Of a stretch of DNA of 64,000 bases, positions 39,201 through 55,289 are shown one piece after another; positions within the stretch are counted from its first letter, which is position 1, and each line of letters opens with the position of its first letter. Source of the stretch: an uncultured Gammaproteobacteria bacterium. Its GTDB lineage: Bacteria > Patescibacteriota > Patescibacteriia > Patescibacteriales > BS150m-G62. The stretch spans positions 2,593 through 66,592 of the forward strand of contig CAZMSR010000001.1 of the NCBI GenBank assembly GCA_964569045.1. Direction: 5' to 3'. The position numbers and the translations under genes are program-made. The notes under the pieces are model-generated. The model was not told where the DNA came from. It saw nothing but the letters and a program-made list of their open reading frames with translations, and ran no database searches.

Positions 39201-42200
39201 CGGGCAGTCAATAACAAATACTTCAAGTCAAAGCTCAGTCTCACTTAATTTGGGCGGTAGATTAAGACCCGGTAGCACATATATACTTTCTTTTTACGTA
39301 AAGCCCGGTAATACTGCTAATTTTAAAGTGAAAATTGATGATACTAATGGTTCTGAGATTAAAGGACTAAAGCAAGACAAATGGCAAAGAGTTGAAGAAT
39401 TAATAACTTTAACCAATAGCGTTGCTAATCAAACAATGTCTATTGGATATGATAATGGAAGCACAAAATTCTACATTGATGACTTTAGGTTAATAGAGGT
39501 GATTGACAGATATTATTTTATGAAAGATTCTTTTGAGATTCCATCAATGTGTCATCAAGAATATTGGAAGCTTCTTAGTCCGGAAAATTATCCGATTCCT
39601 TTTAATGAAGGTGGTTATCCTTTTCCAAATTATTCGCTTGGATGCCGCGAATATCAAGATAGAGAAAGCGCTTCACATTTTTTAAAAGATTTTACAGAAC
39701 TATGCCAAGAAACAGCAGTCGGCTGCGAACGCATGATAGATACCCATAATTATACAGGTGAGGGAGCTGAAGCATGGAATGAAAGTAATCCGAATGAAGG
39801 CGATGATGCCTGCGATTCCGGAGAACAAAGCTGCGTTTCTGTTCTGGCTAATAACTTAGTGTATGTAGTATATGATACTGAAAAGCAGTGTAATGCAGAT
39901 GATAAAGGTTGCTCAAGATTTGGCGAGAAAAAGTCTGTTGCAGGTACTCCGTATTACGAAGATGCTTATATTAAAAATAATCCGGATCATTATAGTACTT
40001 CAGTAGATTCTGATGCTATTTTATGCACTCAAGATGGTATTAGTTGTAAAGCTTGGATTTCGGAAATTAATGGTACGCGCTATTTTAAAGATCCGGAAGG
40101 CAAGGAGTGTGAATGGCGAGCTAATAGTGATGGAATAGAAAATTGGTATCAAAAAAAAGCGAATCGTTGTGATACAGATAGCAACGGAGTAATTAATGAT
40201 AGTGAAAATCTTCCAGCTAATAGTGGAGCGAATGGTGCATTAAGCCCGGCTTGCGCAAGCGCTCGTTCTTGCAGTGTAATCACTGATCCGTCTGATAGCT
40301 GCCAAAAAGACAGTGATTGTGGTAATAATACTTGCATTGATTCGCAGTGTCGTTATTCTTGTATTCGTGATAATCGAGATCATGTGTGCGGTAATCAAAA
40401 TGCTTTAAAAACAATTGGCTCAAATGGTGTTAATTCTCACATTAGTCAGCCAAGTGGCAGTGATGGTTGGGTTGGGGTTTGCCCAATTCGTGAATCCGGA
40501 TGCACAGAATATATTGATCCAATTGCAGAATTTAGCACAAATTTAGTATTTAACCCAAGCGGTGAAGAAATTGCCGGAGTTAATAATGCAGGTTGGGAAA
40601 ATCATACTCCAAACGGATTTAAGCAGGAGATCGAAGTCGAACCGGCTACGCTTTATACAATTAAAGGCGCAACTAAGTTTCAGTGTGATAATGCTATAGA
40701 TAAAATGAATTCAGATAATGTTTTGGTAAATGTGGCATTAACTACAGATATTACTTTGACAAATGGAGAAAGTATTTTATTTAAAACAAATAATAATGCT
40801 AATAAATGTACTGTTTTTAGGGATGGTGATGTAACGGAAGTTATCTTACGCAAAGCAGAGGCGAATTATAGGTTATTAAAAGATATTGACAGAAGTTCTT
40901 GCCATGAACCTGATTTTGATAGTGGCTGTATTTTGTTTAATGAAAGAACTCAGTTTGGCTATAGCGAGAATATGAGTAGTCTTTCTTATAATGCTGACAA
41001 TTTAGAGGCTTTGAATAATTGTACAAATGGAGCTAATTGTGACTCAAACCAAATTTTAAAAGTTGAACCTAATAGAGTTTGCGCTGAATGGCTTGCGTGC
41101 AGGTCAATGGTTAAGGTTAGGGATGAAGATGGTCAAGAATCAAGTGTTTGCCTAGGTGTTGGAGCATGTAATGGTCTTGATAGTAATGATGAATGTAGTA
41201 GTTTTGTAAGAAAAGAAAGAATAAATAATGACTATACAAAAGATAGCGTAACAGCGGCAAGTGTTAGTAATTTATCCGGATATTCTAAGATTGGGTACTC
41301 AAAATATAAAAACAATGCTCAATTGCCATCATTTGAACGAAATGATTTATTTTCATTAAGTGCTATGAGTCAGGTTGGTGAAATTGCAGTAGTGCCAAAT
41401 GGTAGCTTTGAATTTTCAGGTGAGAATGGATACCCGATTGGTTGGAGTTGGGATAATCAAGAAGAAGTTGATAAGGTTTGGACACCAAATGTTTTTAAAG
41501 TAATTAATAGTCCTTATGAGGTAAAAGAAGTTGAAGTTATTAATTTTTCACCTGCCGGAGAGGGATTTATTAAAATTGGTTCATCTCATGTAGTAATTTC
41601 AGAAGAAATAGATGTTGAGCCTCAAAGAGATTATATTTTTACTGCCTATATTAATACTCAAAATTTACAGGTTGGTAACGGTGTGATTGATATTGTATCA
41701 GCCGGAGAATCTATTACTAGCACAACAGAAGATCAAGGAGGTGAGGGTTGGATATTTAAAATAAAGAAATTTAGATCAAATTCAAATCAAATTAATATTA
41801 AACTATATAATGATGACAACGATTCTTCAGGAGTTTTTTATGTAGATGGAATAAAATTAAGACCGGCTTTACATACTAGAATTGAATCTACTGAAACTGA
41901 AGACCAAACTAGTTCTGACAATTGGTATGTGCCGCAATCATGCAAACTTTATCCTGAGCCAAGTTCCTTAGCTTGCGAGTATATTGATGACTCCGGTGTT
42001 AATCAAAGGGGGTTGTATGGATATTGCTTAGAATATGATAGATATCCGGGTGATGAAAACACATGTTTGCTTTGGTATCCGGTTAATAGAGTTAAAGGCG
42101 ATTGGATAGAAGAAGGTGCGGGCTATAGTGATAGGTTTCCTCTTTATTATTGCCTTGAAGCAGTTGGATACTGCTCTGGAACAGAAGGTGAGATACCGGC

Positions 42201-44076
42201 ATTGTATTGTAATAAGTTAGTTAAGGTTGTAACAGAAACAGGTAAAAGTAAGTTTTGGTATTCAAGGGTTAGGGAAGGCAGTGATCATAGTATTGAATTT
42301 AGTAATGCAAGTGAAAATAAGCATATTTATTGGGGGGCAATTAATCCAATGGGGCACGAGATTGTTAATTTAGGTTATTCGCGTGATTCTAGTCCGTATG
42401 GTAGTATTGTAGCTCCTGCGCCAACTCATAATCCTTTTGAGTGGGATGGGTTAAAGCGACGAGGCAAAGAAGTTTTAAAAGAACCATTACAGATTTATGA
42501 TGCAATATCAGGAGAGGGATTAATTAGAGCCGGTACCCCGTATTATGGCAATGGAATTACTTGTCGAAAAGTATTTGAGCGTGAGCGATACGGAAGTTGT
42601 GGGACTCGTCATGAAGTAAATAGAGGAATTTGGGATTCATGTACAATGAAGTCATATAATGATGATTGTAACACAGCTACACCTTTTGCCTCCACAACCA
42701 ATGAATTAGGAGAAGTTATAACTACTCATGTTGATTGTTGCGGTGGTCGTGGTAGAAAATTAACAGTAACAACACAGTGTTTTAGTGATTTAAAATATAA
42801 TATAGCTGAAAATGAGGTGCAGGCAGTTAGTGGGTTAAAATCAATTTTTGCTCAAAGTTATGGTACTTGGGTATGGAATGGTAATGATGAAAGTGGTTTT
42901 TATGAAAAAGTGCCAGATGATATGGATATTACAACTAAACAGCAATGTGTTTCAGATGATCCAGGAACTGTAGGCGTAGAATGCGCAATGAATAATTCTA
43001 ATGACTGCCCATATGGTTATTGCCCTAAAAGTAATAATGTGCAAGAAGGGGACAGTTTAGGCTATTATCAGTGCGGTGTCTTGAATATATCTTGTTGTCC
43101 GGAAAATAAAAAAGTTTTAATTGATTCATGTAAAAGTATTGATGGAGATTTTAATTGCGTTGAGGGTTTTTGTGATAAGCTTCCAAGCCAAGCATGTACT
43201 ATAGAATATAGATGTAATTTAACAGACACAACTCAGGTAATAGTTGATACTCATGATTGCAGTCAATATAATAATGCAATATGTAAAGAAGTTACTACTC
43301 TTAATGCTTCAAAAACTTGTATAGGTGGCGAGAATCATGGGCATGTGTGTCAGGCGCATGCATGTATAAATGGAGTTTGTGATCTTGTTTCAACTTATGA
43401 GTCTAGCAATAGTAGTTCAGGAAGTCATAGCTGGGAACCTCCGAATAGTATTTGTGAGAATAATACACGCCCTGATTACCATAATGATTCTTCTAAAAAT
43501 GGTAATGGTAATAATAGTTATTGCGCAGTAACGCCAAGTATTACAAATATTCGTATTGATAATCCAAATATAGTTAAAACAGGTTTTGTTAATTTAACTT
43601 TTAATTCAGATGTTAATGAAGATCAATTACCATTAACAATGGTTTCAGTTGATTGGGGTGATGGAAAGGAAACAACAATTACTGGTGCTGACATGCTTGA
43701 TAGGTCAAATAATAAATACCCTCACTCATTCTATCATTTATACGACTACTGGGATTTAAAAAGAAGTGATGCAGACAATGATGGCATCATCTGTGAAACA
43801 GAGAGTACTCCAAGTAACCGCAATTATTGCAAAATTAAACCAAAAGTAAAAATTCGTGATAACTGGGGGTGGTGTAATGCTACTGATACTGCTACTGATA
43901 CTACTACTGATACTACTACTGATACTACTACTGCTACTGATACTACTACTGATACTACTACTGCTACTGATGCTACTACTACTGATACTGATACTGATAC
44001 TGATGCTACTACTACTGCTACTAATTGCAATTATTGGGAGGAATATAACGATGATATTAAAGTTTATGAAAAATAG
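36205..44076 (+). CDS. giant (2623 aa) Cys-rich exported surface protein with CBM4_9-like, PKD-like and Thr/Asp-repeat regions
   Basis: Uninterrupted ORF from GTG 36205. Signal peptide ..VPIVEAQS. About ten GCxE(Y/F)-type motifs. Two jelly-roll-like segments ending FYIDDFRLIEV and FYVDGIKLRPA. VDWGDGKE near the C-terminus. Confidence 0.8.
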   Translation: MHRKNFFLKTKIFKQKAISALIFVFIFVQVGVPIVEAQSRPSNLALASAEIKTKAYGTEQVIKKQTRTDKDRTAEQIRQERLKQLNDKAKKSTFRSVVSSVLNTIAYDTASWLGAGGKGQKPLFIREGWGEYLSNIGDQALGQFIEEFAKDFVGDACNPEVGLKISLGMKGQQRPTFGKCSFTQMVDNWEQAIESTDFLNNFQSVFDLNNSTTDISMALNANIGLLEFQLSEQEKGKRTRGNTDENLPRDPAGRATAPPGMASVLTEEPLEWFRQNCANPSGDTVLVEAMTVFVCQLSYTAFVTLLMDLLADKPTVTEPYSGSYSFESGPRADGISGTNEYMRSILQPNFDIRGDYEILSELVNCPNPNKAGPTNCVITENFRKAISERKTVKEALNGYLNPQGIFGFVSEDLEPLYNEGYPYRSMIILRKFRILPVGWELAAEYIRNNPSVGTFNLQDLVDCYDSTDSNMAWCSGLVDPDWVLKAPLNSCKLEGPGPEIMRESVVGQGVNSRRSVQRNTTYCADEQSCIKERDDGSCDAHGYCTEEKRTWNFAAESCNPIFNTCDTFTRVDNDSFTVSYLQNTLDTCGQNEIGCKEYSTKVETDEYEPITDVVSEWSGSQTDSIFFNSNAAECTVDEEGCHMFLREATNNTPTYLKLLPDYLGQVCYNLGTDTSEYYNYKEDLTPEVKARCEQFVRRCNASEVGCELYTDIVRGDKIPAKITTLNQCPNECVGFDEYQKRETIFESSESAYFIPRYADTCRLDMVGCDEFTNLDEVARGGEGREYYVDLKQCVDPDEPEGEACSNFYIWEQLNTGPQLNVLNLKADAKNGGAPVVTNSNEDCTEQTFNNPEHPNYNPDCQEFLDENGEKHYKLYSKTITCSQDCHTYRRAGQNIDYSIAKNSCNNGSNGDEKGWSSTHNACVVCKNGGKWNSSQGACLYSAIPGEGRLCSQEFAGCREYSGPQAANVREIARYDFEGVHPSLADWSNAEIANEALLINGQSITNTSSQSSVSLNLGGRLRPGSTYILSFYVKPGNTANFKVKIDDTNGSEIKGLKQDKWQRVEELITLTNSVANQTMSIGYDNGSTKFYIDDFRLIEVIDRYYFMKDSFEIPSMCHQEYWKLLSPENYPIPFNEGGYPFPNYSLGCREYQDRESASHFLKDFTELCQETAVGCERMIDTHNYTGEGAEAWNESNPNEGDDACDSGEQSCVSVLANNLVYVVYDTEKQCNADDKGCSRFGEKKSVAGTPYYEDAYIKNNPDHYSTSVDSDAILCTQDGISCKAWISEINGTRYFKDPEGKECEWRANSDGIENWYQKKANRCDTDSNGVINDSENLPANSGANGALSPACASARSCSVITDPSDSCQKDSDCGNNTCIDSQCRYSCIRDNRDHVCGNQNALKTIGSNGVNSHISQPSGSDGWVGVCPIRESGCTEYIDPIAEFSTNLVFNPSGEEIAGVNNAGWENHTPNGFKQEIEVEPATLYTIKGATKFQCDNAIDKMNSDNVLVNVALTTDITLTNGESILFKTNNNANKCTVFRDGDVTEVILRKAEANYRLLKDIDRSSCHEPDFDSGCILFNERTQFGYSENMSSLSYNADNLEALNNCTNGANCDSNQILKVEPNRVCAEWLACRSMVKVRDEDGQESSVCLGVGACNGLDSNDECSSFVRKERINNDYTKDSVTAASVSNLSGYSKIGYSKYKNNAQLPSFERNDLFSLSAMSQVGEIAVVPNGSFEFSGENGYPIGWSWDNQEEVDKVWTPNVFKVINSPYEVKEVEVINFSPAGEGFIKIGSSHVVISEEIDVEPQRDYIFTAYINTQNLQVGNGVIDIVSAGESITSTTEDQGGEGWIFKIKKFRSNSNQINIKLYNDDNDSSGVFYVDGIKLRPALHTRIESTETEDQTSSDNWYVPQSCKLYPEPSSLACEYIDDSGVNQRGLYGYCLEYDRYPGDENTCLLWYPVNRVKGDWIEEGAGYSDRFPLYYCLEAVGYCSGTEGEIPALYCNKLVKVVTETGKSKFWYSRVREGSDHSIEFSNASENKHIYWGAINPMGHEIVNLGYSRDSSPYGSIVAPAPTHNPFEWDGLKRRGKEVLKEPLQIYDAISGEGLIRAGTPYYGNGITCRKVFERERYGSCGTRHEVNRGIWDSCTMKSYNDDCNTATPFASTTNELGEVITTHVDCCGGRGRKLTVTTQCFSDLKYNIAENEVQAVSGLKSIFAQSYGTWVWNGNDESGFYEKVPDDMDITTKQQCVSDDPGTVGVECAMNNSNDCPYGYCPKSNNVQEGDSLGYYQCGVLNISCCPENKKVLIDSCKSIDGDFNCVEGFCDKLPSQACTIEYRCNLTDTTQVIVDTHDCSQYNNAICKEVTTLNASKTCIGGENHGHVCQAHACINGVCDLVSTYESSNSSSGSHSWEPPNSICENNTRPDYHNDSSKNGNGNNSYCAVTPSITNIRIDNPNIVKTGFVNLTFNSDVNEDQLPLTMVSVDWGDGKETTITGADMLDRSNNKYPHSFYHLYDYWDLKRSDADNDGIICETESTPSNRNYCKIKPKVKIRDNWGWCNATDTATDTTTDTTTDTTTATDTTTDTTTATDATTTDTDTDTDATTTATNCNYWEEYNDDIKVYEK
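43879..44022 (+). repeat. in-frame ACT/GAT/GCT trinucleotide tandem repeat (48 codons of T/D/A)
   Basis: Encodes ATDTATDTTTDTTTDTTTATDTTTDTTTATDATTTDTDTDTDATTTAT near the C-terminus of the giant protein. Generates spurious ORFs in other frames. Confidence 0.9.
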
Positions 44077-44098
44077 TTTTAAGTGAATTGAGTTAATT

Positions 44099-44194: not shown

Positions 44195-45280
44195 ATGGTT
44201 AATTCAAAGCTTTTGTTTAAATATTTTAGTTTTGTTATTGCAGTTTTCGCGCTTGGATTTTTTGTTTTGCCTAAAACTTCTTTTTCGCGCGACGTTTCTC
44301 CGGACGCAATAGCCGTAAGGGTTATTCCAAACCCTAATCATTATTCAGTAACCCGCTGGTATAAAGAACAAGGATTTCGCGGCAACCCTCAGCAATTTAA
44401 AGTAGACGAATACCGGGCCCTGCGAGACGGCTCAACAGTCTATGTTAATGCAGCAAATATTACCGGAGAGTGTGTTAATGGAAATGGAACAGTGGTAACA
44501 AATTCTATAGTCTGCTCAACCGATGATGAATGCGTAGCAGAATATGAAATTGATACTCCTCCATACACTTGTAACTTAACTAACTTTTACACCAACATCT
44601 ACGTAATAGCTAAAAATAGAGGCGCGGATGCTTTAACCGAAAATATTTTTACGCAAGTTTTGAATTCTTTTAAATTAAACGCAAACTTACCGGAACCCGG
44701 TATTTGCCAAAATTTGGCAGATACAGATTGTGCTAATGATAACGATTGCGAAGCAGGTGAAGAATGTGATACTGCAAATGGTCAAAATCCGGGAGTTTGC
44801 CAATTAAAATGCGACTACGACTATGACTGCCCTAGTGAATCCTATTGCTCATCTGACAAAGCCGAAGTAATTCGCGATGTTAAGCGTTTGGCCGATCTAA
44901 CTGACATTAAAATAGCTCTTAACAATTACAGAGGTATTCATGGCCATTACCCTAAGCTTGAGTCCGGCACATATGTACCCCACATGACCCTTTCCACCTG
45001 GCCTAGTTGGCAGAAAACCTTAGCTCGTGAGTTAGGCTTACCAAGCTTGCCAACTGATCCTATTAATAGGTTAGGTGAGTGTGTTTCTGCTTATAATCCT
45101 AATGGCGACGATAATGGATCTTCGATTCAAATTTCCCCGGACCCAATAACCTGCTGGGATGAAGTTAATAAGATTTTTGCAGATACAGATCCTAATGATT
45201 CAGGCCCGAATTTACCCTCAAATAGCCATGTATACTTATATATAACCGATCCTGAAGGATTAGGCTATGGAATTGAATAA
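44195..45280 (+). CDS. anchored/secreted Cys-rich protein with a pilin-head-like segment
   Basis: N-terminal hydrophobic helix. KRLADLTDIKIALNNYRGIHGHYP...LPTDPIN resembles the globular-domain motif of type IV pilins/pseudopilins, but there is no class III (G/FTLIE) leader. Confidence 0.55.
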   Translation: MVNSKLLFKYFSFVIAVFALGFFVLPKTSFSRDVSPDAIAVRVIPNPNHYSVTRWYKEQGFRGNPQQFKVDEYRALRDGSTVYVNAANITGECVNGNGTVVTNSIVCSTDDECVAEYEIDTPPYTCNLTNFYTNIYVIAKNRGADALTENIFTQVLNSFKLNANLPEPGICQNLADTDCANDNDCEAGEECDTANGQNPGVCQLKCDYDYDCPSESYCSSDKAEVIRDVKRLADLTDIKIALNNYRGIHGHYPKLESGTYVPHMTLSTWPSWQKTLARELGLPSLPTDPINRLGECVSAYNPNGDDNGSSIQISPDPITCWDEVNKIFADTDPNDSGPNLPSNSHVYLYITDPEGLGYGIE

Positions 45281-45338
45281 ATGCTTAATAATTATGATTG
45301 TAGTATTTATTAATATTTATAAGTTTTTTAATATTAGA

Positions 45339-46223
45339 ATGAAATATTTATTTACAATTTGTTTGCTATTTTTTGGTTGCGCAATGCAGGCTAAGGCCTT
45401 TAATATATGTGCAGTAATGGAGTCTGGGTTTGTAACCGAATTAAGTGGCGGAGCATGCCCCGGTAGTGCATCCGGTGCTTCAGCGGAGGTGTCTTATGAA
45501 TTTAAATTAGGAGCATCTTGTGGTGATGGTGTAGTTGGGCTAGCAAGTTCAGAGGAATGCGATTGTGGAAAAGATTCTAATGGAAAGCGAATATTAAGAT
45601 GCTTGGGAGGAGGCACAGGCCATAATGACCAGTATATTTGCACTGATTGTAGATGGAATAATAGTGGTTGGCTAGGAGATGGAATAACAAATGGAAGCGA
45701 AGTGTGTGATCCGGTAGTAAATTTAATTGACGGCACAAAACCTCGAATTAAGCCATGCACTGTTCAAACAAATTTTCCAAATTATTGCGCTCAAGAGTTA
45801 TCAGGTAATCAAAAATGCGCATCTAACGGTAAATCATGGGAAGAGTGCGATGCATTAAGGCCAGTGCCTTCTGAAGATGAGTTTTCGCAGTGCAAAGCTA
45901 TTGGTAATACATTAAGTGATTATGTATGTTGTGTTTTAATAGGGTGTGATCAGGATGGATGCGCTTGTTGTGGTAGAGGCAAAGCCGAGACTCCGGAAGG
46001 TTATGATACTGTTGGATCAATGGATGCCACATGGAATCCTGACAAGTCGCTTAAGGATGATTTTCGAAGTAATAACCAAAATATATATAATAGCTGTGGG
46101 GAGTATTCTGAAGCCGGGAATGATCCAGAAAATGCATGTAAGTTAGTTAGATCAAATGATAATCCACGGAATTGGAAAACAGTAGTAAATAATGCTACCG
46201 CTCGTCATAAATGTTGGAAGTAA
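45339..46223 (+). CDS. secreted Cys-rich protein (CGDG..EECD repeat type)
   Basis: Start moved to ATG 45339 (signal peptide MKYLFTICLLFFGCAMQAKA). The mature N-terminus FNICAVMES is shared with the 47225 product. SCGDGVVGLASSEECDCG motif. Confidence 0.6.
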   Translation: MKYLFTICLLFFGCAMQAKAFNICAVMESGFVTELSGGACPGSASGASAEVSYEFKLGASCGDGVVGLASSEECDCGKDSNGKRILRCLGGGTGHNDQYICTDCRWNNSGWLGDGITNGSEVCDPVVNLIDGTKPRIKPCTVQTNFPNYCAQELSGNQKCASNGKSWEECDALRPVPSEDEFSQCKAIGNTLSDYVCCVLIGCDQDGCACCGRGKAETPEGYDTVGSMDATWNPDKSLKDDFRSNNQNIYNSCGEYSEAGNDPENACKLVRSNDNPRNWKTVVNNATARHKCWK

Positions 46224-46236
46224 TTAATATATTAAT

Positions 46237-47088
46237 ATGAAAAATATTATACTTTTTGTGTCCATAATTACGTTTGTTGTGTTTGTATTTTTGATTAGCG
46301 GAGTTATATATATTAATAGTCTTAAAGATGAATCTTTAAAAGATATTGATTATTCGGATGATAAAATAAAAAAAACTATAATTAATAAAGAAAAAAAAGA
46401 TAATAACAAAAAATATAAAAAAACAATTATTGAAAATGCCTCTTTACTTCAGCAGCACAAACCAAGTATTTCTAGTGGTCAGTTAAATGAATATATGAAT
46501 ATAATTCAAGAAGATAAAAGCATTAAACATTGCCTTGAGTTTGAGGATAGGGAGTTATGCCAATCTTCTGTAGCATTTATTGCCGGTGATATGGATTATT
46601 GCCATTATTTTGAAGGAAGTTTTAAAAGCAAAAAAGAAGCAAATTTATTTACTAATAATTGTGAAAAATTAATAGTTGTTGAGCAAGGTGCTAAAAATGT
46701 AGAAGCTTGTCAGAAATTAACAGGTGATAAGTACTATGATTGTTTAAGAGGTATTTTTCATATTTTTTTAAATAAAAAGGATTGCGCTACAATAAAACAT
46801 GCCCAAGCTAGGAGTTTGTGCATGGATATTATTACTTACAAAAATGCATATATAAAATACAATCAAGAATTATGCAAGGATGTTAAAGATAAAAAATTAA
46901 ACAATTATTGTAAAAGTAATATTTTAAGTAAAACGCAAGACACTGATAATGATGGGTTACCGGATCTAGACGAAATAAGAATTCATCAAACAGACCCCAA
47001 AAACCCCGACACCGACGGCGATGGCTACACAGATGGCGAAGAAGTGCAGGCCGGGTATAATCCATTGGGAAAAGGTAAGCTTAAATAA
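46237..47088 (+). CDS. N-terminally anchored Cys-containing protein with C-terminal thrombospondin-type-3-like repeats (anchor 2)
   Basis: One TM helix. C-terminus DTDNDGLPDLDEIRIHQTDPKNPDTDGDGYTDGEEVQAGYNPLG. Paralog of 49867..50643. Confidence 0.6.
   Translation: MKNIILFVSIITFVVFVFLISGVIYINSLKDESLKDIDYSDDKIKKTIINKEKKDNNKKYKKTIIENASLLQQHKPSISSGQLNEYMNIIQEDKSIKHCLEFEDRELCQSSVAFIAGDMDYCHYFEGSFKSKKEANLFTNNCEKLIVVEQGAKNVEACQKLTGDKYYDCLRGIFHIFLNKKDCATIKHAQARSLCMDIITYKNAYIKYNQELCKDVKDKKLNNYCKSNILSKTQDTDNDGLPDLDEIRIHQTDPKNPDTDGDGYTDGEEVQAGYNPLGKGKLK
46939..47063 (+). repeat. 125-bp near-identical segment, copy 1 (pairs with 50494..50618)
   Basis: 4 mismatches in 125 bp by eye against 50494..50618, while the rest of the two genes is strongly diverged. 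Confidence 0.85.
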
Positions 47089-47104
47089 AATTATTATAAA
47101 AAAA

Positions 47105-47127
47105 ATGACTTATAAAATATAAGTCAT
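47105..47127. terminator. perfect 10-bp hairpin after anchor-2 gene (weak terminator candidate)
   Basis: ATGACTTATA - AAA - TATAAGTCAT, preceded by an A-run. Only a short T-rich tail follows. Confidence 0.3.
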
Positions 47128-47224
47128 ATTGTAAATTATTTATTTCAGAAGATTTAAAATTCTTGGAAGCATTAGTATACCGACAAAGAGTGCTCCAAAT
47201 AATGTGGCAATAATTTTTTAACAA

Positions 47225-49858
47225 ATGCTAAAAAATTTACTCTTAATAATAGTACCGGTTTTTATATTTTTACTATCATTTAATAGCGCTAAAGCTTTTA
47301 CTGTTTGCGCAGTAATGGAGTCTGAATACACGCTTAGTAGTGGAGCAAGTGGAAATTGCGGTAGCACCATAACAGGTATAAACACTGTTGAGGTTCAACA
47401 ATTTTTAGTTAATAACCCACCTATCTTTACAGGCTGGAATTTTTCAAGAGCAAATACCGGTAGTAACTATTCAGCTCACATACAAGCCAAAGACCCTGAT
47501 GGGAACGAAGTCTTCTGGGAAGTTAATGCGGACAGTGATAGATGTACTAATAATATGGAATGCACAACTCAGGGTGATGAGGATTGTGGTAATACTTGGG
47601 ATGATAATAAACATTTTTGGACAACTTGGGTTGATGATAAAATTGAATGGGGCGCAGATGCTATGGATAATTTAAAAGCCGAGAGAACTTTTATTAGAAA
47701 CCAAAAAAAATTTGACTTTGGAATTGCCGGCAATACTAGTAAATGTTTTTTTGATGTGACTATAAGAGATCGATTTAATGAAAGTGAAGGGCTAGCAACA
47801 ACAAAAACTTTTTGGGTAGAAACAAACCCTTTGCCGGAGATTATAATTAATAGTTATTCTAATCCATTTGAACCTACTGAAGATAATTATCAATTCACAT
47901 TCTCATTTGAAGCAAAAAGTGTTTATACCGACAATTATCCTCTAGAATTAGAAATTACTGTAGAACCTAGTGAATATACTTCAATAGAAGATTGGTTTAA
48001 TTCTTTTGGAATTGATGATTTTAAGGTGGTCCAAGCTTTAGGTGAAAACGAAGAAAGATTTAAGCAAGTTGAAGATGGAACTAAATATGAATACAATATA
48101 ATCGGCAATTTTAAACCACATCAAGTAGTGATTCAAGGCAAGCATTCTTATTCTATAGATGTAAAAATTAAAGTAACAGACGTTAATGATAATGTTTCAG
48201 AAGAAAATGCAACACTAACAATAAAAAATAATGCGCCGACTATAACTCCTGATTGTGAAGATTTTTCTGACTTAAGCAATATTAATATAGAAACAGATGA
48301 ACAATTTATTTGCGATATTTCTATGGTTGATACCGCTGGCCAACATTTGAATTTTTATTACAAATTACCGGAAGGCCTTAGAAGCAATCAACACACAACA
48401 TCATTAGGTTATCCTTATTTGATTATTGGGGATAGGCCAATTGAATGCGCTCCAAATTGCCCTGAATTTTATGTAAAAGCCATTGACCAATTTGGCGCAG
48501 AAACAAAAGTAGATTTAAATTTTAATATAACAACAGTCTGTGGCGATGGGCGAGTGCAGTCACCGAATGATAGTGGCGATAACGAGGTTTGTGATCGATA
48601 TGAAAGTGATCCTATTACTGGATTAAATGGTTGGAGTTGCTTTAATGCTTATGGAACAATTGGTTGTAGTAGTGATTGCAAGAGTAGGACATGTAGTGGT
48701 GGGGGTGGTGGTACTCCGGGGCAGTTGTATGAAGGTATTTGTGGAGATAGTGATACACAAGGCCCGGAAGAATGTGATGCTATCTCTGCATGTTGCATTG
48801 AGCGAAATACTACAACTGGCATTGGGTGTAAATTTGAATGCACCTCAAGTAATTATTCCGAAGCTAATATTGGCTTCGGTTCGCTACCTATTGATTCAAT
48901 TGAATTAGCAAATAATGAAACTACGCAAATGAAAATCCCAGCATGCCGGGTGCATTATGATTTGAATATGAGACTTGAAAGTATTGGAGATCTTGCACCT
49001 TTACCAAATTTAGCAATTATTTTTATAACCGATACTTCCGGGAGCATGAAATACAGTCAGCCAACAAATGGTAGAGAATCAGATGGTAATATGCCGGCTA
49101 TAAAAACAGCTTTAGATAATGTTTTGGATTCTTTGCATGATAAAGCAAAAGAAAGTCCGGGCTCTACTATAAAAGTTGCTTTGCTAGAGTCGAATAATGG
49201 ATTTACCGATTATGATAGCTATGATGAGCAAACAGTTTTTCGTGATATTTCTAATTTAATAAATAATGATTATCTGAAAAATGTTGTGGCACTATATGAT
49301 TATGGTTCTGCAAGTTCCGGTGGGGGAGGTGGCGATAATAATAATAGAGTGATAGATATTGCAGATCAGATGTTTAACGATTCCTCTTTAAGCGGATATA
49401 GTAAAATTATTGTAGCTTTAGCTGATAATAGAAATTATAATAGGGACCATCTTCATTCGGTAAAAAGGTATGGTGAAGTTTATACAATTTCTTATGAAAG
49501 AGATTATGATTATGAGATTTGTGATATGTCTAGTGGAACTAGGTGTGATATTTCTATGGATGCAAGTATAGATAATTATACAAATGATTATGCTTATTTA
49601 GGTGGACCTAATATTTCCGGTGTGTATAGAAAGATTATCGAACAGGCTACTGTGGCCCCTGCAGGTGAAGTAACTATTATTTTTGGCAACTCAACAAGTC
49701 ATACTGTATCTACTAATGATTTTGGAAATAAAATTTTTCAATTAGATAATATTTGTTCCGACTCACCACGTTCTATACCACTTAGTGTAGAATTTAATGG
49801 TGGTGGTAAAGTAAAATTTAGCGAGGCAAAGTTTGAGTACTGCGAAGTTTGTAATTAA
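47225..49858 (+). CDS. secreted Cys-rich multidomain protein with Ig/cadherin-like repeats and C-terminal vWA domain
   Basis: Signal peptide ..SFNSAKA. Mature N-terminus FTVCAVMES. VCGDGRVQ..EVCD and ICGDSDTQGPEECD motifs. vWA MIDAS IFITDTSGSMKY. Confidence 0.7.
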   Translation: MLKNLLLIIVPVFIFLLSFNSAKAFTVCAVMESEYTLSSGASGNCGSTITGINTVEVQQFLVNNPPIFTGWNFSRANTGSNYSAHIQAKDPDGNEVFWEVNADSDRCTNNMECTTQGDEDCGNTWDDNKHFWTTWVDDKIEWGADAMDNLKAERTFIRNQKKFDFGIAGNTSKCFFDVTIRDRFNESEGLATTKTFWVETNPLPEIIINSYSNPFEPTEDNYQFTFSFEAKSVYTDNYPLELEITVEPSEYTSIEDWFNSFGIDDFKVVQALGENEERFKQVEDGTKYEYNIIGNFKPHQVVIQGKHSYSIDVKIKVTDVNDNVSEENATLTIKNNAPTITPDCEDFSDLSNINIETDEQFICDISMVDTAGQHLNFYYKLPEGLRSNQHTTSLGYPYLIIGDRPIECAPNCPEFYVKAIDQFGAETKVDLNFNITTVCGDGRVQSPNDSGDNEVCDRYESDPITGLNGWSCFNAYGTIGCSSDCKSRTCSGGGGGTPGQLYEGICGDSDTQGPEECDAISACCIERNTTTGIGCKFECTSSNYSEANIGFGSLPIDSIELANNETTQMKIPACRVHYDLNMRLESIGDLAPLPNLAIIFITDTSGSMKYSQPTNGRESDGNMPAIKTALDNVLDSLHDKAKESPGSTIKVALLESNNGFTDYDSYDEQTVFRDISNLINNDYLKNVVALYDYGSASSGGGGGDNNNRVIDIADQMFNDSSLSGYSKIIVALADNRNYNRDHLHSVKRYGEVYTISYERDYDYEICDMSSGTRCDISMDASIDNYTNDYAYLGGPNISGVYRKIIEQATVAPAGEVTIIFGNSTSHTVSTNDFGNKIFQLDNICSDSPRSIPLSVEFNGGGKVKFSEAKFEYCEVCN

Positions 49859-49866
49859 ATTTTTTT

Positions 49867-50643
49867 ATGAATAAACAAGTAAAAATTTTTCTATTTTCTA
49901 TTTTATTTTTAATTGTTTTTTTTACTATCACTATATTTGCATTAAGAAAAATAGTTAATCAGAAAGAAATTAATATTCAACAAAACCAAATTAAAGACAA
50001 TAGTAAAAATACTGAAGAATTAATGCAAGAGAAAAGTGATGAAAAAGAAAATGACAATAAAATATATAGTGAAATAAAAATATCAAAAGATTACACTAAA
50101 TGCCAAAATATTAGCAATGATTCTAAAAGAGATTTGTGTTACTTTTTATTAGGGCTTGAATCAAAAGACAAGGAGGTATGTAAATTTATTCAAAAAGAAA
50201 GTCAAAAAGAAGAGTGTGAAAACAAGGTTATGTATAATTTTGCATTAGACTCTGATGACATAGAATTATGCAATTCTGTGAAGAATAAAAGATTGCTTGA
50301 TTCGTGCATAGTACGAATAATATCAGATAAAGCTTTTTCTAAAAGTGACTGTCAAAAATTAAATACTCTTCAACAAGAGATTTGTTTATCATATATACAA
50401 TTTAATGACATTATTAAAAAGAGTGATATAAATAAATGCGATTCATTAAATAAAGCTGACCAAAGTGAATGTCAAGACATATTAAATAGTAAAGACACTG
50501 ATAATGATGGGTTACCGGATCTAGACGAAATAAGAATTCATCAAACAGACCCCAAAAATCTCGACACCGACGGCGATGGCTACACAGATGGCGAAGAAGT
50601 CCGGGCCGGGTATAATCCTTTGGGAGCAAGCAATCTTAAGTAA
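49867..50643 (+). CDS. N-terminally anchored Cys-containing protein with C-terminal thrombospondin-type-3-like repeats (anchor 3)
   Basis: One TM helix. C-terminus DTDNDGLPDLDEIRIHQTDPKNLDTDGDGYTDGEEVRAGYNPLG. Starts 8 nt after the vWA gene. Confidence 0.6.
   Translation: MNKQVKIFLFSILFLIVFFTITIFALRKIVNQKEINIQQNQIKDNSKNTEELMQEKSDEKENDNKIYSEIKISKDYTKCQNISNDSKRDLCYFLLGLESKDKEVCKFIQKESQKEECENKVMYNFALDSDDIELCNSVKNKRLLDSCIVRIISDKAFSKSDCQKLNTLQQEICLSYIQFNDIIKKSDINKCDSLNKADQSECQDILNSKDTDNDGLPDLDEIRIHQTDPKNLDTDGDGYTDGEEVRAGYNPLGASNLK
50494..50618 (+). repeat. 125-bp near-identical segment, copy 2 (pairs with 46939..47063)
   Basis: See copy 1. Differences are two C/T changes and a GTGCAGG/GTCCGGG patch. 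Confidence 0.85.
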
Positions 50644-50664
50644 AATTGATATTATTGTAGGTTT

Positions 50665-50759: not shown

Positions 50760-52199
50760 ATGCTCGAAATTTTGAAAAAGTATAATGAATTACCTCGAGA
50801 GCTCCGGGCTAAATTAGCTGCACCGGAGGTTTTAGCTATGGTAGAGAAATTAGAAAATATTTACGAACGAAAGCTTTCTCAGATTATTATGCGGGTTATG
50901 ATTAAAGAGCTAGAGGTTGCAGAATTAGTTGAGCAGTTTGTATATATTTACAAGTTAGAACGAAGTAAAGCTGAAGAGCTTGTGGAAAAATTAAAAAAGA
51001 ATATTTTTTGTCAAGTGAGTGATTACTTAAAATTTGAAGATACTGTTTGTGCAGTTGACTTTAAAGATAGCATGAAGCAAGTAAAAATTAGTGTAAACGT
51101 AAAAGAGCAAGTAGAAAGAGTTATAGATAAAGCCGAATTTAGTTTTGCCTCAGAAATGCTTGCAAATAGATTTAAAGACATTATAAAAACTAATATAGTA
51201 GGAGTAAGAGATTGTTTAAGCGTTAAAGAAACTTTAGCTAAGCCTGTGAATAAAGGAGGGGTAGGGCTTAATGAGGAAGAAATAAATAAGGTTATTAAAA
51301 TATTAAAATGTAAAGGCGATTTATTAAAAGAATTAGAAAAAAAAGAAGCTAAAAAAGAAGCGCCGGCTATAGGGTTAGACGTAGCTAGCTTGCGAGATGT
51401 ACCTTATGATTTAAATAAACTAAGGGAAATGAGTAAAAAAGGAGCAGAGCCAACACCTAAAAAACCACTAGAAATGACAAAAGAAGAGTTAAGTGCAGTG
51501 CCGGTAGAATCAGTTAAGCCGGAATCTCAAATTAAAAAAGAAATATCTAGCGCGGTTCCAAATGCACAAGAAGTTAAACCTTTAGAAAAAGTATTAAAAA
51601 TTGACCCTGCACCACAAAAAGAATTAGCAAAAGAAGTATTAGATACCACGCCAGAAGCGGTAGTTAAGAAGCCTTTGAAGAAAAAGTCTAGGTTTTTAGA
51701 TAATTTAAAAGCAATTTTACCGGAGCTTTCAAAACCTAAAGAAACAGTAGAAAACGGAATAAAAATTGTTACTAAGCCAAGTTTGCCAAAAGAAAAGTTA
51801 CAAAAACCAATTGTGAATCATGTAGTAGAAAACGGCAAGGTAAAAATGGAAGATATTCGCTATGTTAAGCGAACAATGGGTCCGATTGATGAGTTAGCTT
51901 ATTTGAGTTTAATGGATTTTCGGCGTTTGCACCAAAACCCGGCTGGAGCTATAATTAAAATAAAGGAAAAAATCGACTTACTTGGGGAATATTCATATGA
52001 ACGTAAGCAGCGCGGTATAAAAGCCTGGAGACAAAATCCGGTTAATAGGCTTTATTTAAAAATAGGAGAACTTAGTATGGCAAAATCAAAGCCCATTAAA
52101 GATATTGCAGAAGATTTAAAGCAAGATCAAAAAGACTACTTAAATGAAGATGAATTTAATGCCATTGGTGAACTAAATAACGAATTAAAATATTTTTAA
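50760..52199 (+). CDS. hypothetical K/E/P-rich protein with structured N- and C-terminal domains, first gene of the T4SS-like sub-block
   Basis: 479-aa ORF with 12-nt spacing to the PrgI-like gene. No catalytic motif recognised. Confidence 0.5.
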   Translation: MLEILKKYNELPRELRAKLAAPEVLAMVEKLENIYERKLSQIIMRVMIKELEVAELVEQFVYIYKLERSKAEELVEKLKKNIFCQVSDYLKFEDTVCAVDFKDSMKQVKISVNVKEQVERVIDKAEFSFASEMLANRFKDIIKTNIVGVRDCLSVKETLAKPVNKGGVGLNEEEINKVIKILKCKGDLLKELEKKEAKKEAPAIGLDVASLRDVPYDLNKLREMSKKGAEPTPKKPLEMTKEELSAVPVESVKPESQIKKEISSAVPNAQEVKPLEKVLKIDPAPQKELAKEVLDTTPEAVVKKPLKKKSRFLDNLKAILPELSKPKETVENGIKIVTKPSLPKEKLQKPIVNHVVENGKVKMEDIRYVKRTMGPIDELAYLSLMDFRRLHQNPAGAIIKIKEKIDLLGEYSYERKQRGIKAWRQNPVNRLYLKIGELSMAKSKPIKDIAEDLKQDQKDYLNEDEFNAIGELNNELKYF

Positions 52200-52211: not shown

Positions 52212-52631
52212 ATGAAACAGTTTACAATACCTCAGTTTATAGATGTTGAAGATAAAATTTTAGGGCCTTTAACGGTGCGTCAGTTTTTAATAATGCTTGT
52301 ATGCTCAATGATACTATTTGTGTATTACAAGGTTTTTGATTTTACTTTGTTTGTGGTTGCAGGATTAATAACTTTTGGAGTATTCGGAATACTGGCTTTT
52401 GCGCGAATTAATGGCAGACCATTTCATTTTTTTATACTAAATATAATCCAGACTCTAAAAAAACCGGGTTTAAGAGTTTGGAATAATACTGATGTATCTA
52501 AAATGACTGATGAAATTAAAGAGGAAGAAAAAGTCGACTACATTGCCGTTGCACCAAAGCCAATAACAAGTTCGCGCTTAACAGAATTATCTTTAACAGT
52601 AGATACATCAGGAACATACAAAACAAAATAA
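52212..52631 (+). CDS. PrgI/VirB3-like small membrane protein
   Basis: N-terminal FTIPQFIDVEDKILGPLTVRQF followed by two TM helices. Immediately upstream of the VirB4-like ATPase. Confidence 0.65.
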   Translation: MKQFTIPQFIDVEDKILGPLTVRQFLIMLVCSMILFVYYKVFDFTLFVVAGLITFGVFGILAFARINGRPFHFFILNIIQTLKKPGLRVWNNTDVSKMTDEIKEEEKVDYIAVAPKPITSSRLTELSLTVDTSGTYKTK

Positions 52632-52647
52632 AAAATAAAAATTATAA

Positions 52648-53343
52648 GTGGCAAAAAAACAAAAATCAAGAGACAGTTTAGCATCTAATAAAATTAGAGT
52701 ATCAACCCAAAAATATTTAGACATAGCTGAAATTAAAGAAGACACGGTAATTTTAAAAGATGGAGGGATGAGAGCTATTTTAATGGTTTCTAGTATTAAT
52801 TTTGCTTTAAAAAGCGAAGATGAACAGAACGCACTAGTAGCAGCTTATGTGAGTTTTATAAATAGTCTTGACTTTCCATTTCAGATTGTGATTCAATCGC
52901 GCGAATTAGATATGGAAAACTACATAAAAGACCTAAAGCAAAAAGAACGAGAACAAACAAACGAGCTATTAAAAATACAAATGGCAGAACATACTCAGTA
53001 TATTGAAGAATTAATTTCTATTGGGCGAATTATGAATAAGCGTTTTTACGCTGTTGTGCCATATAGCCCCGGGTCAGACAAGCACAAAAGTTTTTTTGAT
53101 TCATTATCCGATGCTTTTAAGCCGGCTGTATTAATACGTATAAAAGAAAAAATATTTTGGGATAGACGTGATCAATTAACAAAAAGAGTAGATAGAGTAA
53201 AAGCAGGGTTAGCATCTATGGGGCTTGTTGCTATTGATCTAGACACTCAAGCACTAATAGAACTTTTTTATAACACTTATAACCCTGTAACATCATCTCG
53301 TGAAAAACTTGCAAAAACAGAAGATTTAAGAGTTGTGAATTAA
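52648..53343 (+). CDS. hypothetical soluble protein of the T4SS-like module (resembles VirB4/TrbE N-terminal region)
   Basis: GTG start. YLDIAEIKEDTVILKDGGMRAILMVSSINFALKSEDEQ..FINSLDFPFQIVIQS pattern. Assignment is inference only. Confidence 0.4.
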   Translation: MAKKQKSRDSLASNKIRVSTQKYLDIAEIKEDTVILKDGGMRAILMVSSINFALKSEDEQNALVAAYVSFINSLDFPFQIVIQSRELDMENYIKDLKQKEREQTNELLKIQMAEHTQYIEELISIGRIMNKRFYAVVPYSPGSDKHKSFFDSLSDAFKPAVLIRIKEKIFWDRRDQLTKRVDRVKAGLASMGLVAIDLDTQALIELFYNTYNPVTSSREKLAKTEDLRVVN

Positions 53344-53351
53344 AATTAAAT

Positions 53352-55289
53352 ATGATTAATCCATTTAAAGTAAAAAAACAAGAAAAAGAAAAAAAGCAAG
53401 AAGAAGAGCTAATAGAAAAAAAGGAAACAGAAGAAATAGCTAAATCAGTAGAAAAAACAGAAGAGCTGGTTGAGGAGGAAAAAACTTTTAGAAGAGGAAT
53501 AATTTCAATAAGAGATATTATTGCGCCGGCAAGTATTAAAGTTTTACCTAATTTTTTACGTTTAGGTTCTAAATTTGTAAGGACAATTTTTGTAATAAAT
53601 TACCCTAGATATATTAGTGTTGGGTGGTTTACGCCTGTAGTTAACTTAAATCATACATTTGATATTGCTATGTACTTTTACCCGATTAAAAGCGCAATTA
53701 TACTTAAGCAATTAAAAAAGAAAGCCGGTGCTATGGAAGCACAAATAGTATCAGATGCTGAAAAAGGAGCAGCCAGAGACCCGTTGCGAGAAACAGCTTT
53801 GCGTGATATTGAAGACCTGAGAGATAAATTAACTCAAGGCACTGAAAAGTTTTTTCAATTTGGTTTATATGTAACACTTTACACTGAAACAAAGGATGAG
53901 CTAGACAAATTATCAGATGAGGTAGAAAGCATATTAGGGTCTCGTTTAATATATTCTAAAAAAGTTTTTTACCAATCAGAGCAGGGTTTTAATTCTACAT
54001 TACCACTTGATAATGACGAGCTTTATATAGTTTTTAATATGAATTCTTCTCCGGTGGCTTCGTCTTTTCCGTTTATGTCTAGCGAGCTAACTAGTGACAA
54101 AGGAATACTTTATGGAATAAATAGGCATAATAATAGTTTGATTATTTTTGATCGATTTAGTTTACAAAATGCCAATACGGTTGTATTTGCTACTTCAGGT
54201 GCCGGAAAGAGTTATGCTATTAAGCTTGAAATTTTAAGAACCTTGATGATGGGTACCGATGTAATTATTATTGATCCTGAATACGAGTACAAGCATTTAT
54301 CAGACGCTGTAGGCGGAACATATATTAATATATCATTAGCTAGTGAAAGTAAAATTAATCCCTTTGATTTGCCAAGAGCTATAGGAGATGAATCAAAGCC
54401 TGAGGATATTATTAGATCTGCTGTAATTACTACAAAAGGTTTAGTAAAACTAATGGTAGGTAAATTAACTTATGAAGAAGATTCAATAGTTGATCGGGCA
54501 CTACTTGAGACTTATGCTAAAAAAGATATTACTCCTGAAAGCGATTTATCAAAAGTAGAAGTGCCAATTATGCAAGATTTTTACGATGTTTTAGAAGGTA
54601 TGGAGGGTGGCTCTGATATTGCTCTTAGATTATTAAAATACACTAAAGGAACTTTTGCCGGACTATTAAACAATCCTACAAATGTTGAAATGGATAATCA
54701 GTTAGTTTGTTTTTCAGTTAGAGATTTAGAAGATGAGTTAAGACCAATAGGTATTTATACTATTGTAAATTATATATGGAATATTGTTCGATCTCAAATG
54801 AAAAAAAGAATTTTAGTTATTGATGAAGCTTGGTGGCTAATGCAAAGCGAAGATTCAGCCAAGTTTGTATTTGCTTTAGTAAAAAGATGCAGAAAATATT
54901 TTTTGGGAGTTACAACCATAACTCAAGATGTGAATGACTTTTTAACTTCTGTTTATGGAAAAGCTATTGTAACAAATTCTAGTTTGCAGATTCTTTTAAA
55001 ACAATCCCCGGCTGCAATTGACTTGGTGCAAAAAACTTTTATTTTAACTGAGGGAGAGAAATATTTACTATTAGAATGCGGAGTAGGTGAAGGAATATTT
55101 TTTGCCGGTAATAAGCATGCTGCAATTAAAATCGTTGCTTCATATACTGAGGATCAGCTAATAACTTCAGATCCAAGGCAGTTGCTTGAGATTGAAGAAT
55201 CAAAAAAAGAATTTGAAGAACAAAGAAAAAAAGCCTTAGGTGAGGCAGAAGAAGTTTCTCGAGAAGGAGTTGAGGAATTAGATATATAA
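53352..55289 (+). CDS. VirB4/TraC-family type IV secretion ATPase
   Basis: Walker A FATSGAGKSYAIK and Walker B RILVIDEAWWLM. N-terminal VRTIFVINYPRYISVGWF segment typical of Gram-positive-type VirB4. Confidence 0.85.
   Translation: MINPFKVKKQEKEKKQEEELIEKKETEEIAKSVEKTEELVEEEKTFRRGIISIRDIIAPASIKVLPNFLRLGSKFVRTIFVINYPRYISVGWFTPVVNLNHTFDIAMYFYPIKSAIILKQLKKKAGAMEAQIVSDAEKGAARDPLRETALRDIEDLRDKLTQGTEKFFQFGLYVTLYTETKDELDKLSDEVESILGSRLIYSKKVFYQSEQGFNSTLPLDNDELYIVFNMNSSPVASSFPFMSSELTSDKGILYGINRHNNSLIIFDRFSLQNANTVVFATSGAGKSYAIKLEILRTLMMGTDVIIIDPEYEYKHLSDAVGGTYINISLASESKINPFDLPRAIGDESKPEDIIRSAVITTKGLVKLMVGKLTYEEDSIVDRALLETYAKKDITPESDLSKVEVPIMQDFYDVLEGMEGGSDIALRLLKYTKGTFAGLLNNPTNVEMDNQLVCFSVRDLEDELRPIGIYTIVNYIWNIVRSQMKKRILVIDEAWWLMQSEDSAKFVFALVKRCRKYFLGVTTITQDVNDFLTSVYGKAIVTNSSLQILLKQSPAAIDLVQKTFILTEGEKYLLLECGVGEGIFFAGNKHAAIKIVASYTEDQLITSDPRQLLEIEESKKEFEEQRKKALGEAEEVSREGVEELDI

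Follow-up and report, generated by a model that had tools for sequence, protein, structure and literature searches.

Two secreted, cysteine-rich proteins encoded in a 64,000-nucleotide (nt) stretch of contig CAZMSR010000001.1 (the window) carry nearly the same sequence directly after the signal peptide, and each is followed by a gene for a small membrane protein that ends in TSP3 repeats. We call the secreted proteins P1 and P3 and the membrane proteins anchor1 and anchor2 (Table 1). What purpose is served by a conserved sequence at the very start of a mature protein? The original prediction, made from this DNA alone, was that it forms a sorting, processing or docking signal and that the anchors tether the secreted proteins. 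Comparison with relatives from other genomes leads to a different view of the motif. P1 and P3 are probably uncurated, fast-evolving, modular surface proteins that are exported by the Sec pathway, with a head domain split off into a gene of its own and a cognate anchor encoded downstream. As part of the same explanation, and with the same joint confidence, the motif is a family-wide structural element, a beta-strand with a disulfide-closed loop, and not a sorting tag.

The motif in P1, P3 and their relatives

The N-terminus of P1 reads MKYLFTICLLFFGCAMQAKA↓FNICAVMESGFVTELSGGAC and that of P3 ...LLSFNSAKA↓FTVCAVMESEYTLSSGASGNC, where the arrow marks the predicted cleavage site. After AKA, P1 continues with FNICAVMES and P3 with FTVCAVMES, as originally described, and the two have the 16-mer GCAGTAATGGAGTCTG in common. 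Six-frame translation of the window yields CAVMES in P1 and P3 only. Pairwise BLASTP finds similarity between the two proteins confined to the N-terminal stretch (E 2e-4), and the CGDG and E(E/V)CD cysteine elements, also reported earlier, were found in both. P1 is counted here as 294 amino acids (aa) from the methionine at 45339; alternative gene-caller starts lie at 45267 or 45294.

Relatives were collected with a profile of the two anchors, by looking up the contigs so found, and by an exhaustive phmmer search with P3 that gave 25 further proteins. Word-indexed homologue searches with P1 and P3 returned self matches only. As the exhaustive search and the contexts of the anchor homologues recovered the family, this result reflects a limit of the method and not orphan status. 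A degenerate DNA scan for AxAFxxCA[VIM]ME[ST] gave six hits in 185,579 species genomes and three in metagenome contigs, all of them out-of-context chance matches in high-GC DNA; the negative is a weak one because the scans missed the window's own contigs, which hold two exact matches to the pattern, and because the pattern demanded F and AxA. A looser motif scan of viral contigs gave 0 matches.

Motif counts refer to 20 collected family members, P1 and P3 included. The 18 others come from other metagenomes and metagenome-assembled genomes (MAGs), so the recurrence of the motif is not due to chance, and its retention in orthologues, which had been set as a test, is clear. The consensus is [YF]xxC[AG][VI]MESG[YF]-x7-9-GAC-xGS. 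A second conserved cysteine lies 16–20 residues past the motif cysteine, as in a disulfide, and the sequence runs on through a G/S-rich linker into immunoglobulin (Ig)-like (He_PIG/Big_9) domains.

The sequence comparisons establish homology across the family and two architectures within it. In seven of the 20 proteins (P1, P3, P0130, P0131, P0132, P0135 and P0136) the motif stands directly after an AxA-type site. These sites read AKA↓F, AKA↓F, ANA↓Y, ASA↓Y, ANA↓F, SLA↓Y and TLA↓Y, each after a hydrophobic stretch of 12–18 residues; mature P0130 begins ANA↓YNICAVMESGFVTEISDGAC and mature P0131, encoded at locus L015, ASA↓YTV. Checked by inspection, the -3/-1 rule for Sec/signal peptidase I (SPase I) sites is obeyed in 7/7 cases, with cleavage directly before the F or Y. 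In the other 13 proteins the same motif is internal, at about residue 250–400, where it closes an N-terminal head domain of ~270 aa. These are P0134, P0141, P0144, P0147, P0148, P0149, P0151, P0154 and five proteins at other loci (a 762-aa protein at L019, two paralogues at L021, a 976-aa protein at L023 and one at L024). Examples of the internal motif are ...SHAYVYNYANGAYHACAVMESGYITDLAQGAC in L021, ...GSSYYACAVMESGYVSGVTMGAC in P0151 and ...GSSYNVCAIMESGL... in P0134 (locus L028).

This distribution does not support a signal that depends on lying next to the cleavage site. Such a signal, directing the proteins to the TSP3 anchors or to some machinery for secretion or assembly, would account for the placement of the motif behind AxA-type sites in seven proteins, for its being the most conserved segment of fast-evolving proteins, and for the proximity of the genes to those of a putative type IV secretion system (T4SS). 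However, a motif ~250–400 residues into a protein, as in the thirteen homologues, cannot be an N-terminal signal. The anchors co-vary with their partners' C-terminal domains (see below), but the motif does not change with the anchor subtype and is thus unlikely to determine docking to the anchor. The chance matches of the degenerate scans count on the same side, as far as a scan that missed the window's own contigs can. We consider a sorting signal improbable.

Two other N-terminal signals were considered. In each of the seven proteins with an N-terminal motif, the motif cysteine lies four residues past the hydrophobic stretch, as it might if the cysteine of FxxC were a lipidation site and the motif a lipobox with sorting residues. 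However, positions -3 to -1 of this cysteine read FNI, FTV, YNI, YTV, FAM, YNL and YTV, compared with [LVI][ASTVI][GAS]C for a lipobox, an AxA-type SPase I site lies three residues upstream, and the same cysteine is internal in 13 homologues, paired with the second conserved cysteine 16–20 residues on. That P1 and P3 are lipoproteins is extremely unlikely. The leader of class III pilins is short, reads G↓F(T/S)L(I/L)E and runs into the hydrophobic alpha1-N helix. This signal was rejected for the family: the hydrophobic segment precedes the F or Y, position -1 is not Gly and position +5 not Glu, and the full-length heads start with ordinary signal peptides.

A head domain encoded apart from its putative last strand

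Gene 44195, which precedes P1, matches the N-terminal head domain of the longer relatives. In alignment A4 it is 43–52% identical to nine full-length homologues, and it stops at ...GLGYGIE, one column ahead of the motif cysteine. The conserved pattern of the head is AIAVRVIPNPxHYS...DGRTVYVNAANI...RDxKRLxDLxxIxxALxxY...WPSW...DPIN...CWD...SxVYVY... Neither the head nor the C-terminal domains described below have a Pfam or NCBIfam model, and a PDB profile search with the head gave nothing significant.

The split recurs at the same residue in L027, a locus syntenic with the window. Here a head of 339 aa ends at the same point (...DPDGLGFGIQ) and is followed by a spacer of 76 nt and then by P0130, in which a signal peptide leads into ANA↓YNICAVMES. 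In the window lineage the next gene, P1, likewise supplies a signal peptide and then FNI-CAVMES. The sequence of the window locus is seen in several independent assemblies, on marine metagenome contigs and on an NCBI contig of 133 kb, so the split is not an assembly artefact; marine low-oxygen samples with this genome are JGI 3300009008 and 3300007755. We rejected a programmed frameshift joining 44195 and P1, given that the ~60–130 nt between them encode a hydrophobic signal peptide absent from the intact homologues and that the 76-nt spacer in L027 is non-coding.

The degree of conservation between the window and L027 differs widely from gene to gene. VirB4 is 89% identical, the TrsD-like protein 84% and PrgI 79%. 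The two heads are 57% identical, anchor1 and the L027 anchor 40%, and the C-terminal 242 aa of P1 and their counterpart in P0130 38% (E 4e-39). The N-terminal 44 aa of P1 and P0130 are 66% identical (E 6e-15), and 20 of 24 positions in the mature motif segment are identical, as counted from the alignment. On these figures no other part of these fast-evolving surface proteins is as constrained as the motif, also when there is no head in cis. P1 itself corresponds to a P0130-like protein minus an Ig stalk of ~590 aa. The exhaustive search with P3 matched P0130, P0131, P0132 and P0135 over its N-terminal part and P0133 and P0134 over its C-terminal part; P3 shares its N-terminus and stalk with P0130, and its C-terminal VWA-like region resembles that of P0133 and P0134. 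Compared with L027, the window thus contains one extra cassette of stalk and anchor (P3 and anchor2).

We propose that the N-terminal strand serves the head domain. In most relatives the motif strand would close the ~270-aa head in cis. In the window lineage the head is encoded by the separate gene 44195; the stalks P1 and P3 start with the strand right after the predicted SPase I site and possibly provide it in trans. More tentatively, 44195 may be exported without its last beta-strand, with the strand and loop of P1 or P3 inserting in trans, so that one head could serve two stalks, each with its cognate anchor; this part of the proposal is rather doubtful. The docking role first suggested for the motif is possible in this other form, as docking onto the truncated head protein 44195.

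An AlphaFold2 model of P0149, built from a multiple sequence alignment of 15 sequences, has a mean predicted local distance difference test score (pLDDT) of 60, and ~60 at the motif strand. In this model the motif strand (residues 284–289) follows one turn after the VYVYT strand (273–277), an arrangement that is hairpin-like by layout only, the pairing being unchecked; a low-confidence loop comes next and then a confident Ig domain. A Foldseek search with this low-confidence model returned Ig-like matches only, from the confident stalk domain.

Alternatively, the strand and loop could be a vestige left by loss or splitting of the head and kept as a cap, with the disulfide loop stabilising or protecting the stalk N-terminus and no partner involved. 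Both loop cysteines lie within the retained segment, which could fold alone, the motif is N-terminal in P0135 and P0136 as well, and the L015 protein with the N-terminal motif has no head gene nearby. Against this, CAVMESGF is as well conserved as it is in intact heads and much better than the remainder of the protein (20/24 compared with 38%), and the truncated head gene, kept at 57% identity in the relative, stops precisely where the strand segment of the stalk takes over. We regard a cap without a partner as unlikely, and continue to favor a strand that serves the head.

Anchors and their partners

Both anchors match the Pfam family TSP3_bac (PF18884, cut-off 25), anchor1 with 51.1 bits (E 1e-13) and anchor2 with 48.7 bits (E 7e-13). 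The anchor family alignment, A7, has a transmembrane (TM) helix joined by a variable linker to a helical core, in which ten cysteines are invariant, and then two TSP3 repeats. An AlphaFold2 model of anchor1 has a mean pLDDT of 82.7, with helices in residues 57–228. A Foldseek search with the helical domain gave no significant match in the PDB; the tail superposes on the calcium-binding repeats of Bap over 45 residues (root-mean-square deviation 1.0, 49% identity). The homologues from the profile search are in MAGs named Parcubacteria or Patescibacteria.

The anchor genes start 13 nt behind P1 (46223 to 46237) and 8 nt behind P3 (49858 to 49867), the spacing reported at the outset. Pairing was counted at 11 relative loci, nine of them anchor-profile matches and two found by look-up from the partner side. 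At ten of the 11 (8/9 and 2/2) a cysteine-rich secreted protein ends 3–20 nt before the anchor gene or overlaps it; the partner lies directly 5' of the anchor at L015, L017, L019, L021, L022, L024, L025, L026, L027 and L028. The exception, L023, has a TSP3-only protein without the helical core. The one-to-one pairing that the original prediction drew from the window, and whose conservation in other genomes it named as a check, is borne out by these loci.

The partners fall into three C-terminal types. The first, 'CWK', has the pattern ...CCxLxxCxxDGCxCCG...NWxxxTNHxxAxYRCW[KRE] before the stop, and in P1 it reads ...CCVLIGCDQDGCACCG...NWKTVVNNATARHKCWK. The VWA type ends in ...F.YC..C.., in P3 as ...FEYCEVCN, and the third type is 'CYC'. 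The VWA-like region of P3 contains DTSGS, which resembles the DxSxS of a metal ion-dependent adhesion site (MIDAS), and its homologue P0134 has precomputed VWA/VWA_2 matches. In all three types a cysteine lies 1–6 residues from the stop (RCWK, YCEVCN and SCYCQEMP; 46200–46223 and 49835–49858 in the window).

All-against-all BLAST comparison of the anchor cores gives clusters that follow the C-terminal type of the partner, not the genome. Scores within the eight CWK-associated cores are 58–224 bits, and those between CWK-associated and VWA-associated cores 20–41 bits. Anchor2 scores 104 bits against the L028 anchor, and anchor1 and anchor2 only 34 bits against each other. Anchor1 and anchor2 are thus old paralogues, each inherited with its type of partner, and the co-variation of core and partner type speaks for a specific contact between the anchor and the C-terminal domain of its partner. 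On this view the anchor is a type II membrane protein, with a TM helix, a disulfide-stapled helical domain and two calcium-binding TSP3 repeats, that is encoded behind the stalk gene and would retain the stalk at the cell surface by its C-terminal domain. Modules of the Ig-like, cysteine-repeat or VWA kind would project outward as an adhesin-like structure beside the T4SS-like machine.

We suggest that the module be recognized by (a) the motif [YF]xxC[AG][VI]MES...C, (b) an anchor gene within ~20 nt downstream and (c) an anchor composed of TM segment, helical 10-cysteine core and TSP3 tail. All three features were found in P1 with anchor1, P3 with anchor2, L015, L019, L021, L027 and L028. In L017, L022 and L025 features (b) and (c) occur with a partner that has a T4SS_pilin segment in place of the motif. 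At L024 and L026 the partner sequence lacks its 5' end, and these two loci are left out of the count for (a). The T4SS_pilin segment (VirB2-like, PF18895) is a two-helix segment fused to CWK or CYC domains (L017, 8735–9985; L025, 789–1781; L022, 5818–7980), and these partners link the anchor module directly to T4SS pilin-like proteins. The L015 contig (JGI Ga0105000_1000819, 6193–20918) holds a third pair of stalk with N-terminal motif (P0131) and anchor, in a type IV pilus cluster with PilB/T2SSE, PilC/T2SSF and PilM. Its tetranucleotide correlation with the window is 0.974, and the two may belong to one genome or to close relatives.

Anchor1 and anchor2 are 39% identical overall, and 44 of their last 49 residues are identical. 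The DNA of this tail forms a tract (Table 1) of 47% GC, compared with ~24% in the rest of the anchor genes, with a sharp 5' boundary. Within it 40 of 44 conserved codons are identical where 22 are expected (P 2e-9), and the tract is only ~72% identical to the L027 and L015 anchors. It is a product of recent gene conversion, with concerted evolution of the TSP3 tail alone. Of the paralogous anchors with a common tail in the original prediction, the identical tail therefore stands, but it reflects recent conversion between old paralogues and not slow conservation.

Recent duplication or gene conversion in this genome might then have produced the identical N-termini along with the anchor tails, with no function behind either. 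The GC-rich, 95.6%-identical tract of 135 nt in AT-rich flanks is what such an event would leave, and the five AVMES codons are identical between P1 and P3 (P 0.017, taken alone). However, of the ten conserved codons of the motif seven are identical, compared with 5.3 expected (P 0.18), and three differ synonymously; the DNA of the two signal peptides is not alignable. As codon identity is not in excess, the conservation of the motif stems from selection on the peptide and not from recent conversion. The motif is moreover conserved in other genomes, and outside the tail the two anchors are deeply diverged (34 bits), each with its nearer relatives among anchors of other genomes. Recent duplication is thus very improbable as a general explanation; it is refuted for the motif and holds for the TSP3 tail alone.

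Several points weigh against the reading that we favor, a split-off head serving stalks held by cognate anchors. The cleavage sites were placed by the -3/-1 rule as sole criterion. The head model is of low confidence, and the assignment of the strand to the head fold comes mainly from sequence logic. P0131, at L015, has the motif at its N-terminus and no head gene within 21 kb. The VWA-type and CYC-type anchor classes have two members each. Contacts of the stalk with its anchor and with the head are predictions from the sequences, and we infer both the adhesive function and the reassembly of head and stalk. The organism, like other bearers of the family, would be a low-GC, Patescibacteria-like bacterium, a placement that is indirect and comes from GC content, the type of T4SS and the names of the MAGs with homologues.

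Genomic setting and comparison with known systems

The window has a GC content of ~32%, and its features are collected in Table 1.

Table 1. Features of the window discussed in the text, in order of position.
Feature	Position	Strand	Description
Small TM and TSP3-like protein 35551	35551..36198	+	Upstream of the giant gene; looser class, outside the anchor family
Giant secreted Cys-rich protein	36205..44076	+	2623 aa; syntenic with a 2714-aa L027 protein, C-terminal parts 28–32% identical
Head-domain gene 44195	44195..45280	+	361 aa; end-to-end homology to the family N-terminal domain; ends ...SHVYLYITDPEGLGYGIE
P1	45339..46223	+	294 aa; signal peptide, motif, CGDG/ECD repeats, C-terminal Cys-rich 'CWK' domain
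Motif in P1	45399..45458	+	FNICAVMESGFVTELSGGAC; residues 21–40, directly after AKA
Anchor1	46237..47088	+	283 aa; N-terminal TM helix, disordered linker, all-helical 10-Cys domain, two TSP3 repeats; CWK subtype
TSP3-tail conversion tract, copy 1	46936..47070	+	135 nt, 95.6% identical to 50491–50625
P3	47225..49858	+	877 aa; signal peptide, motif, Ig-like (He_PIG-type) stalk, CGDG/ECD repeats, VWA-like domain
Motif in P3	47297..47359	+	FTVCAVMESEYTLSSGASGNC; residues 25–45, directly after AKA
VWA-like region of P3	49016..49543	+	Residues 598–773; Pfam PF00092 18.1 bits, E 0.0033, below the cut-off of 23.8
Anchor2	49867..50643	+	258 aa; architecture of anchor1; subtype found with VWA partners
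TSP3-tail conversion tract, copy 2	50491..50625	+	Second 135-nt copy
Conserved 479-aa protein	50760..52199	+	Between anchor2 and the T4SS genes; 53% identical in L027
T4SS-like genes	52212..55289	+	PrgI/VirB3-like, TrsD/TraC-like, VirB4-type ATPase

In the T4SS-like cluster, Pfam finds PrgI with 29.5 bits (cut-off 27) and P-loop_TraG with E 1.7e-27; the TrsD model NF041427 matches below threshold (30.8 bits, where the cut-off is 200; E 2.4e-7). Together with the VirB4-type ATPase these genes make up a monoderm-type (MPF-FATA-like) T4SS-like cluster, as has been described for Patescibacteria (PMC12102498). Two proteins without a Pfam match (50760–52199 and 55308–55943) flank the T4SS genes and may be lineage-specific T4SS components; a gene for a protein of ~207 aa follows VirB4 in L027 too. 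The gap of 136 nt between anchor1 and P3 contains a perfect AT-rich inverted repeat (47103–47130; ATGACTTATA-aaa-TATAAGTCAT), which may be a terminator between two transcription units and has too few G-C pairs for a consensus scan. A promoter and terminator scan of 44000–51000 gave counts at the level of shuffled sequence.

Farther upstream, the C-terminus of the giant open reading frame (43800–44060) contains a Thr/Asp-rich low-complexity run, TDTATDTTTDTTTDTTTATDTTTDTTTATDATTTDTDTDTDATTTATN; the exact run is absent from the C-terminus of the L027 giant. Protein 35551, originally described as a third anchor of the same kind, has only a TM segment and a TSP3-like stretch in common with the anchors. 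It has no TSP3_bac match at E<0.1, hhalign aligns just 51 TSP3-like columns, and it has no 10-cysteine helical domain, so we do not class it with them. On the minus strand, 33010–34086 encodes a protein of 358 aa in which a module GEAWYVNP...YYLGKP.DAF..M..LG.GI is duplicated on either side of two TSP3_bac repeats (Pfam, 38.9 bits, E 7e-10); the protein is unrelated to the helical core of the anchors.

The module has T4SS or type IV pilus genes for neighbors in several genomes. For Patescibacteria, attachment to a host cell is the way of life. In the one genetically tractable species, which is in culture, epibiotic growth requires the T4SS-like system and several adhesins (PMC10633639). Beside Patescibacterial T4SS clusters no adhesin has been recognized, and no PrgB-type adhesin was detected near them or reported in Patescibacteria (PMC12102498). 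The locus described here is a recurrent, uncurated module in which a modular cysteine-rich stalk precedes its cognate membrane anchor. Fast-evolving (38–57% identity compared with 89% for VirB4) and placed beside such genes, it is a concrete candidate for machinery of host contact. The conserved split between head and strand predicts assembly of the domain in trans, and the co-variation of anchor and partner predicts interacting surfaces. For annotation, the lesson is that a conserved sequence behind a signal peptide may be the remnant of a domain boundary and not a targeting signal. If the head does assemble in trans, which we again put forward only tentatively, ultrasmall episymbiotic bacteria would have an adhesin that assembles itself from three parts, is encoded beside their T4SS-like machine and arose by gene fission.

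Individual parts of the module recall known proteins. The CGDGxxxxxE(E/V)CD spacing of the DUF4215/Myxococcus Cys-rich repeats recurs in P1, P3 and their homologues. However, neither DUF4215/PF13948 nor TIGR02232 matches P1 or P3 at E<0.1, and a homologue at L021 has a DUF4215 match below threshold (17.8 bits against a cut-off of 27). The head helix RDxKRLxDLxxIxxALxxYxxxxGxYP aligns with the helix of the pseudopilin GspG/PulG and is followed by beta-strands, the terminal one closed by a Cys-Cys loop that recalls the pilin D-region. This likeness is not significant (PDB profile 3g20, E 1.9; hhalign comparison with PulG, 30 columns at 46% probability). In contrast to GspG/PulG, the head has an extra beta-rich N-terminal part of ~130 aa and no class III (G↓FxxxE) signal.

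As in the donor-strand complementation of chaperone-usher pili, a fold without its last strand (44195) is encoded beside proteins that start with that strand, and the split is conserved. The fold and machinery are unrelated, however, and complementation in the window is hypothetical; if trans-assembly is true, it would be an extracellular analogue of donor-strand complementation that came about by gene fission.

Bacterial TSP3 proteins include PF18884 members, OmpA-like proteins, the Bap B-domain and CglD/MtsD of Myxococcus. The anchors share with them two C-terminal DxDxDGxxDxxE repeats (E 1e-13), and CglD and MtsD give weak NCBIfam matches in the same stretch. The anchors differ in carrying the repeats as a short tail behind a TM-anchored helical domain with ten cysteines and in the strict coupling of the gene to an upstream cysteine-rich partner.

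A parallel in overall design is with the modular surface adhesins of Gram-positive bacteria and T4SS, such as the Enterococcus PrgB type and adhesins with Ig-like and VWA domains. Like these, the family members are Sec-exported multi-domain proteins with Ig-like (He_PIG/Big_9-type) stalks, P3 has a VWA-like module with a MIDAS-like motif, and the stalks are encoded beside a monoderm-type (PrgI/TrsD/VirB4) cluster. Unlike them, P1 and P3 have no LPXTG/sortase signal and no homology to PrgB, and anchoring is apparently delegated to the separate membrane protein encoded downstream. With its conserved split head, this module of surface protein and anchor is an uncurated variant of modular bacterial adhesin systems.

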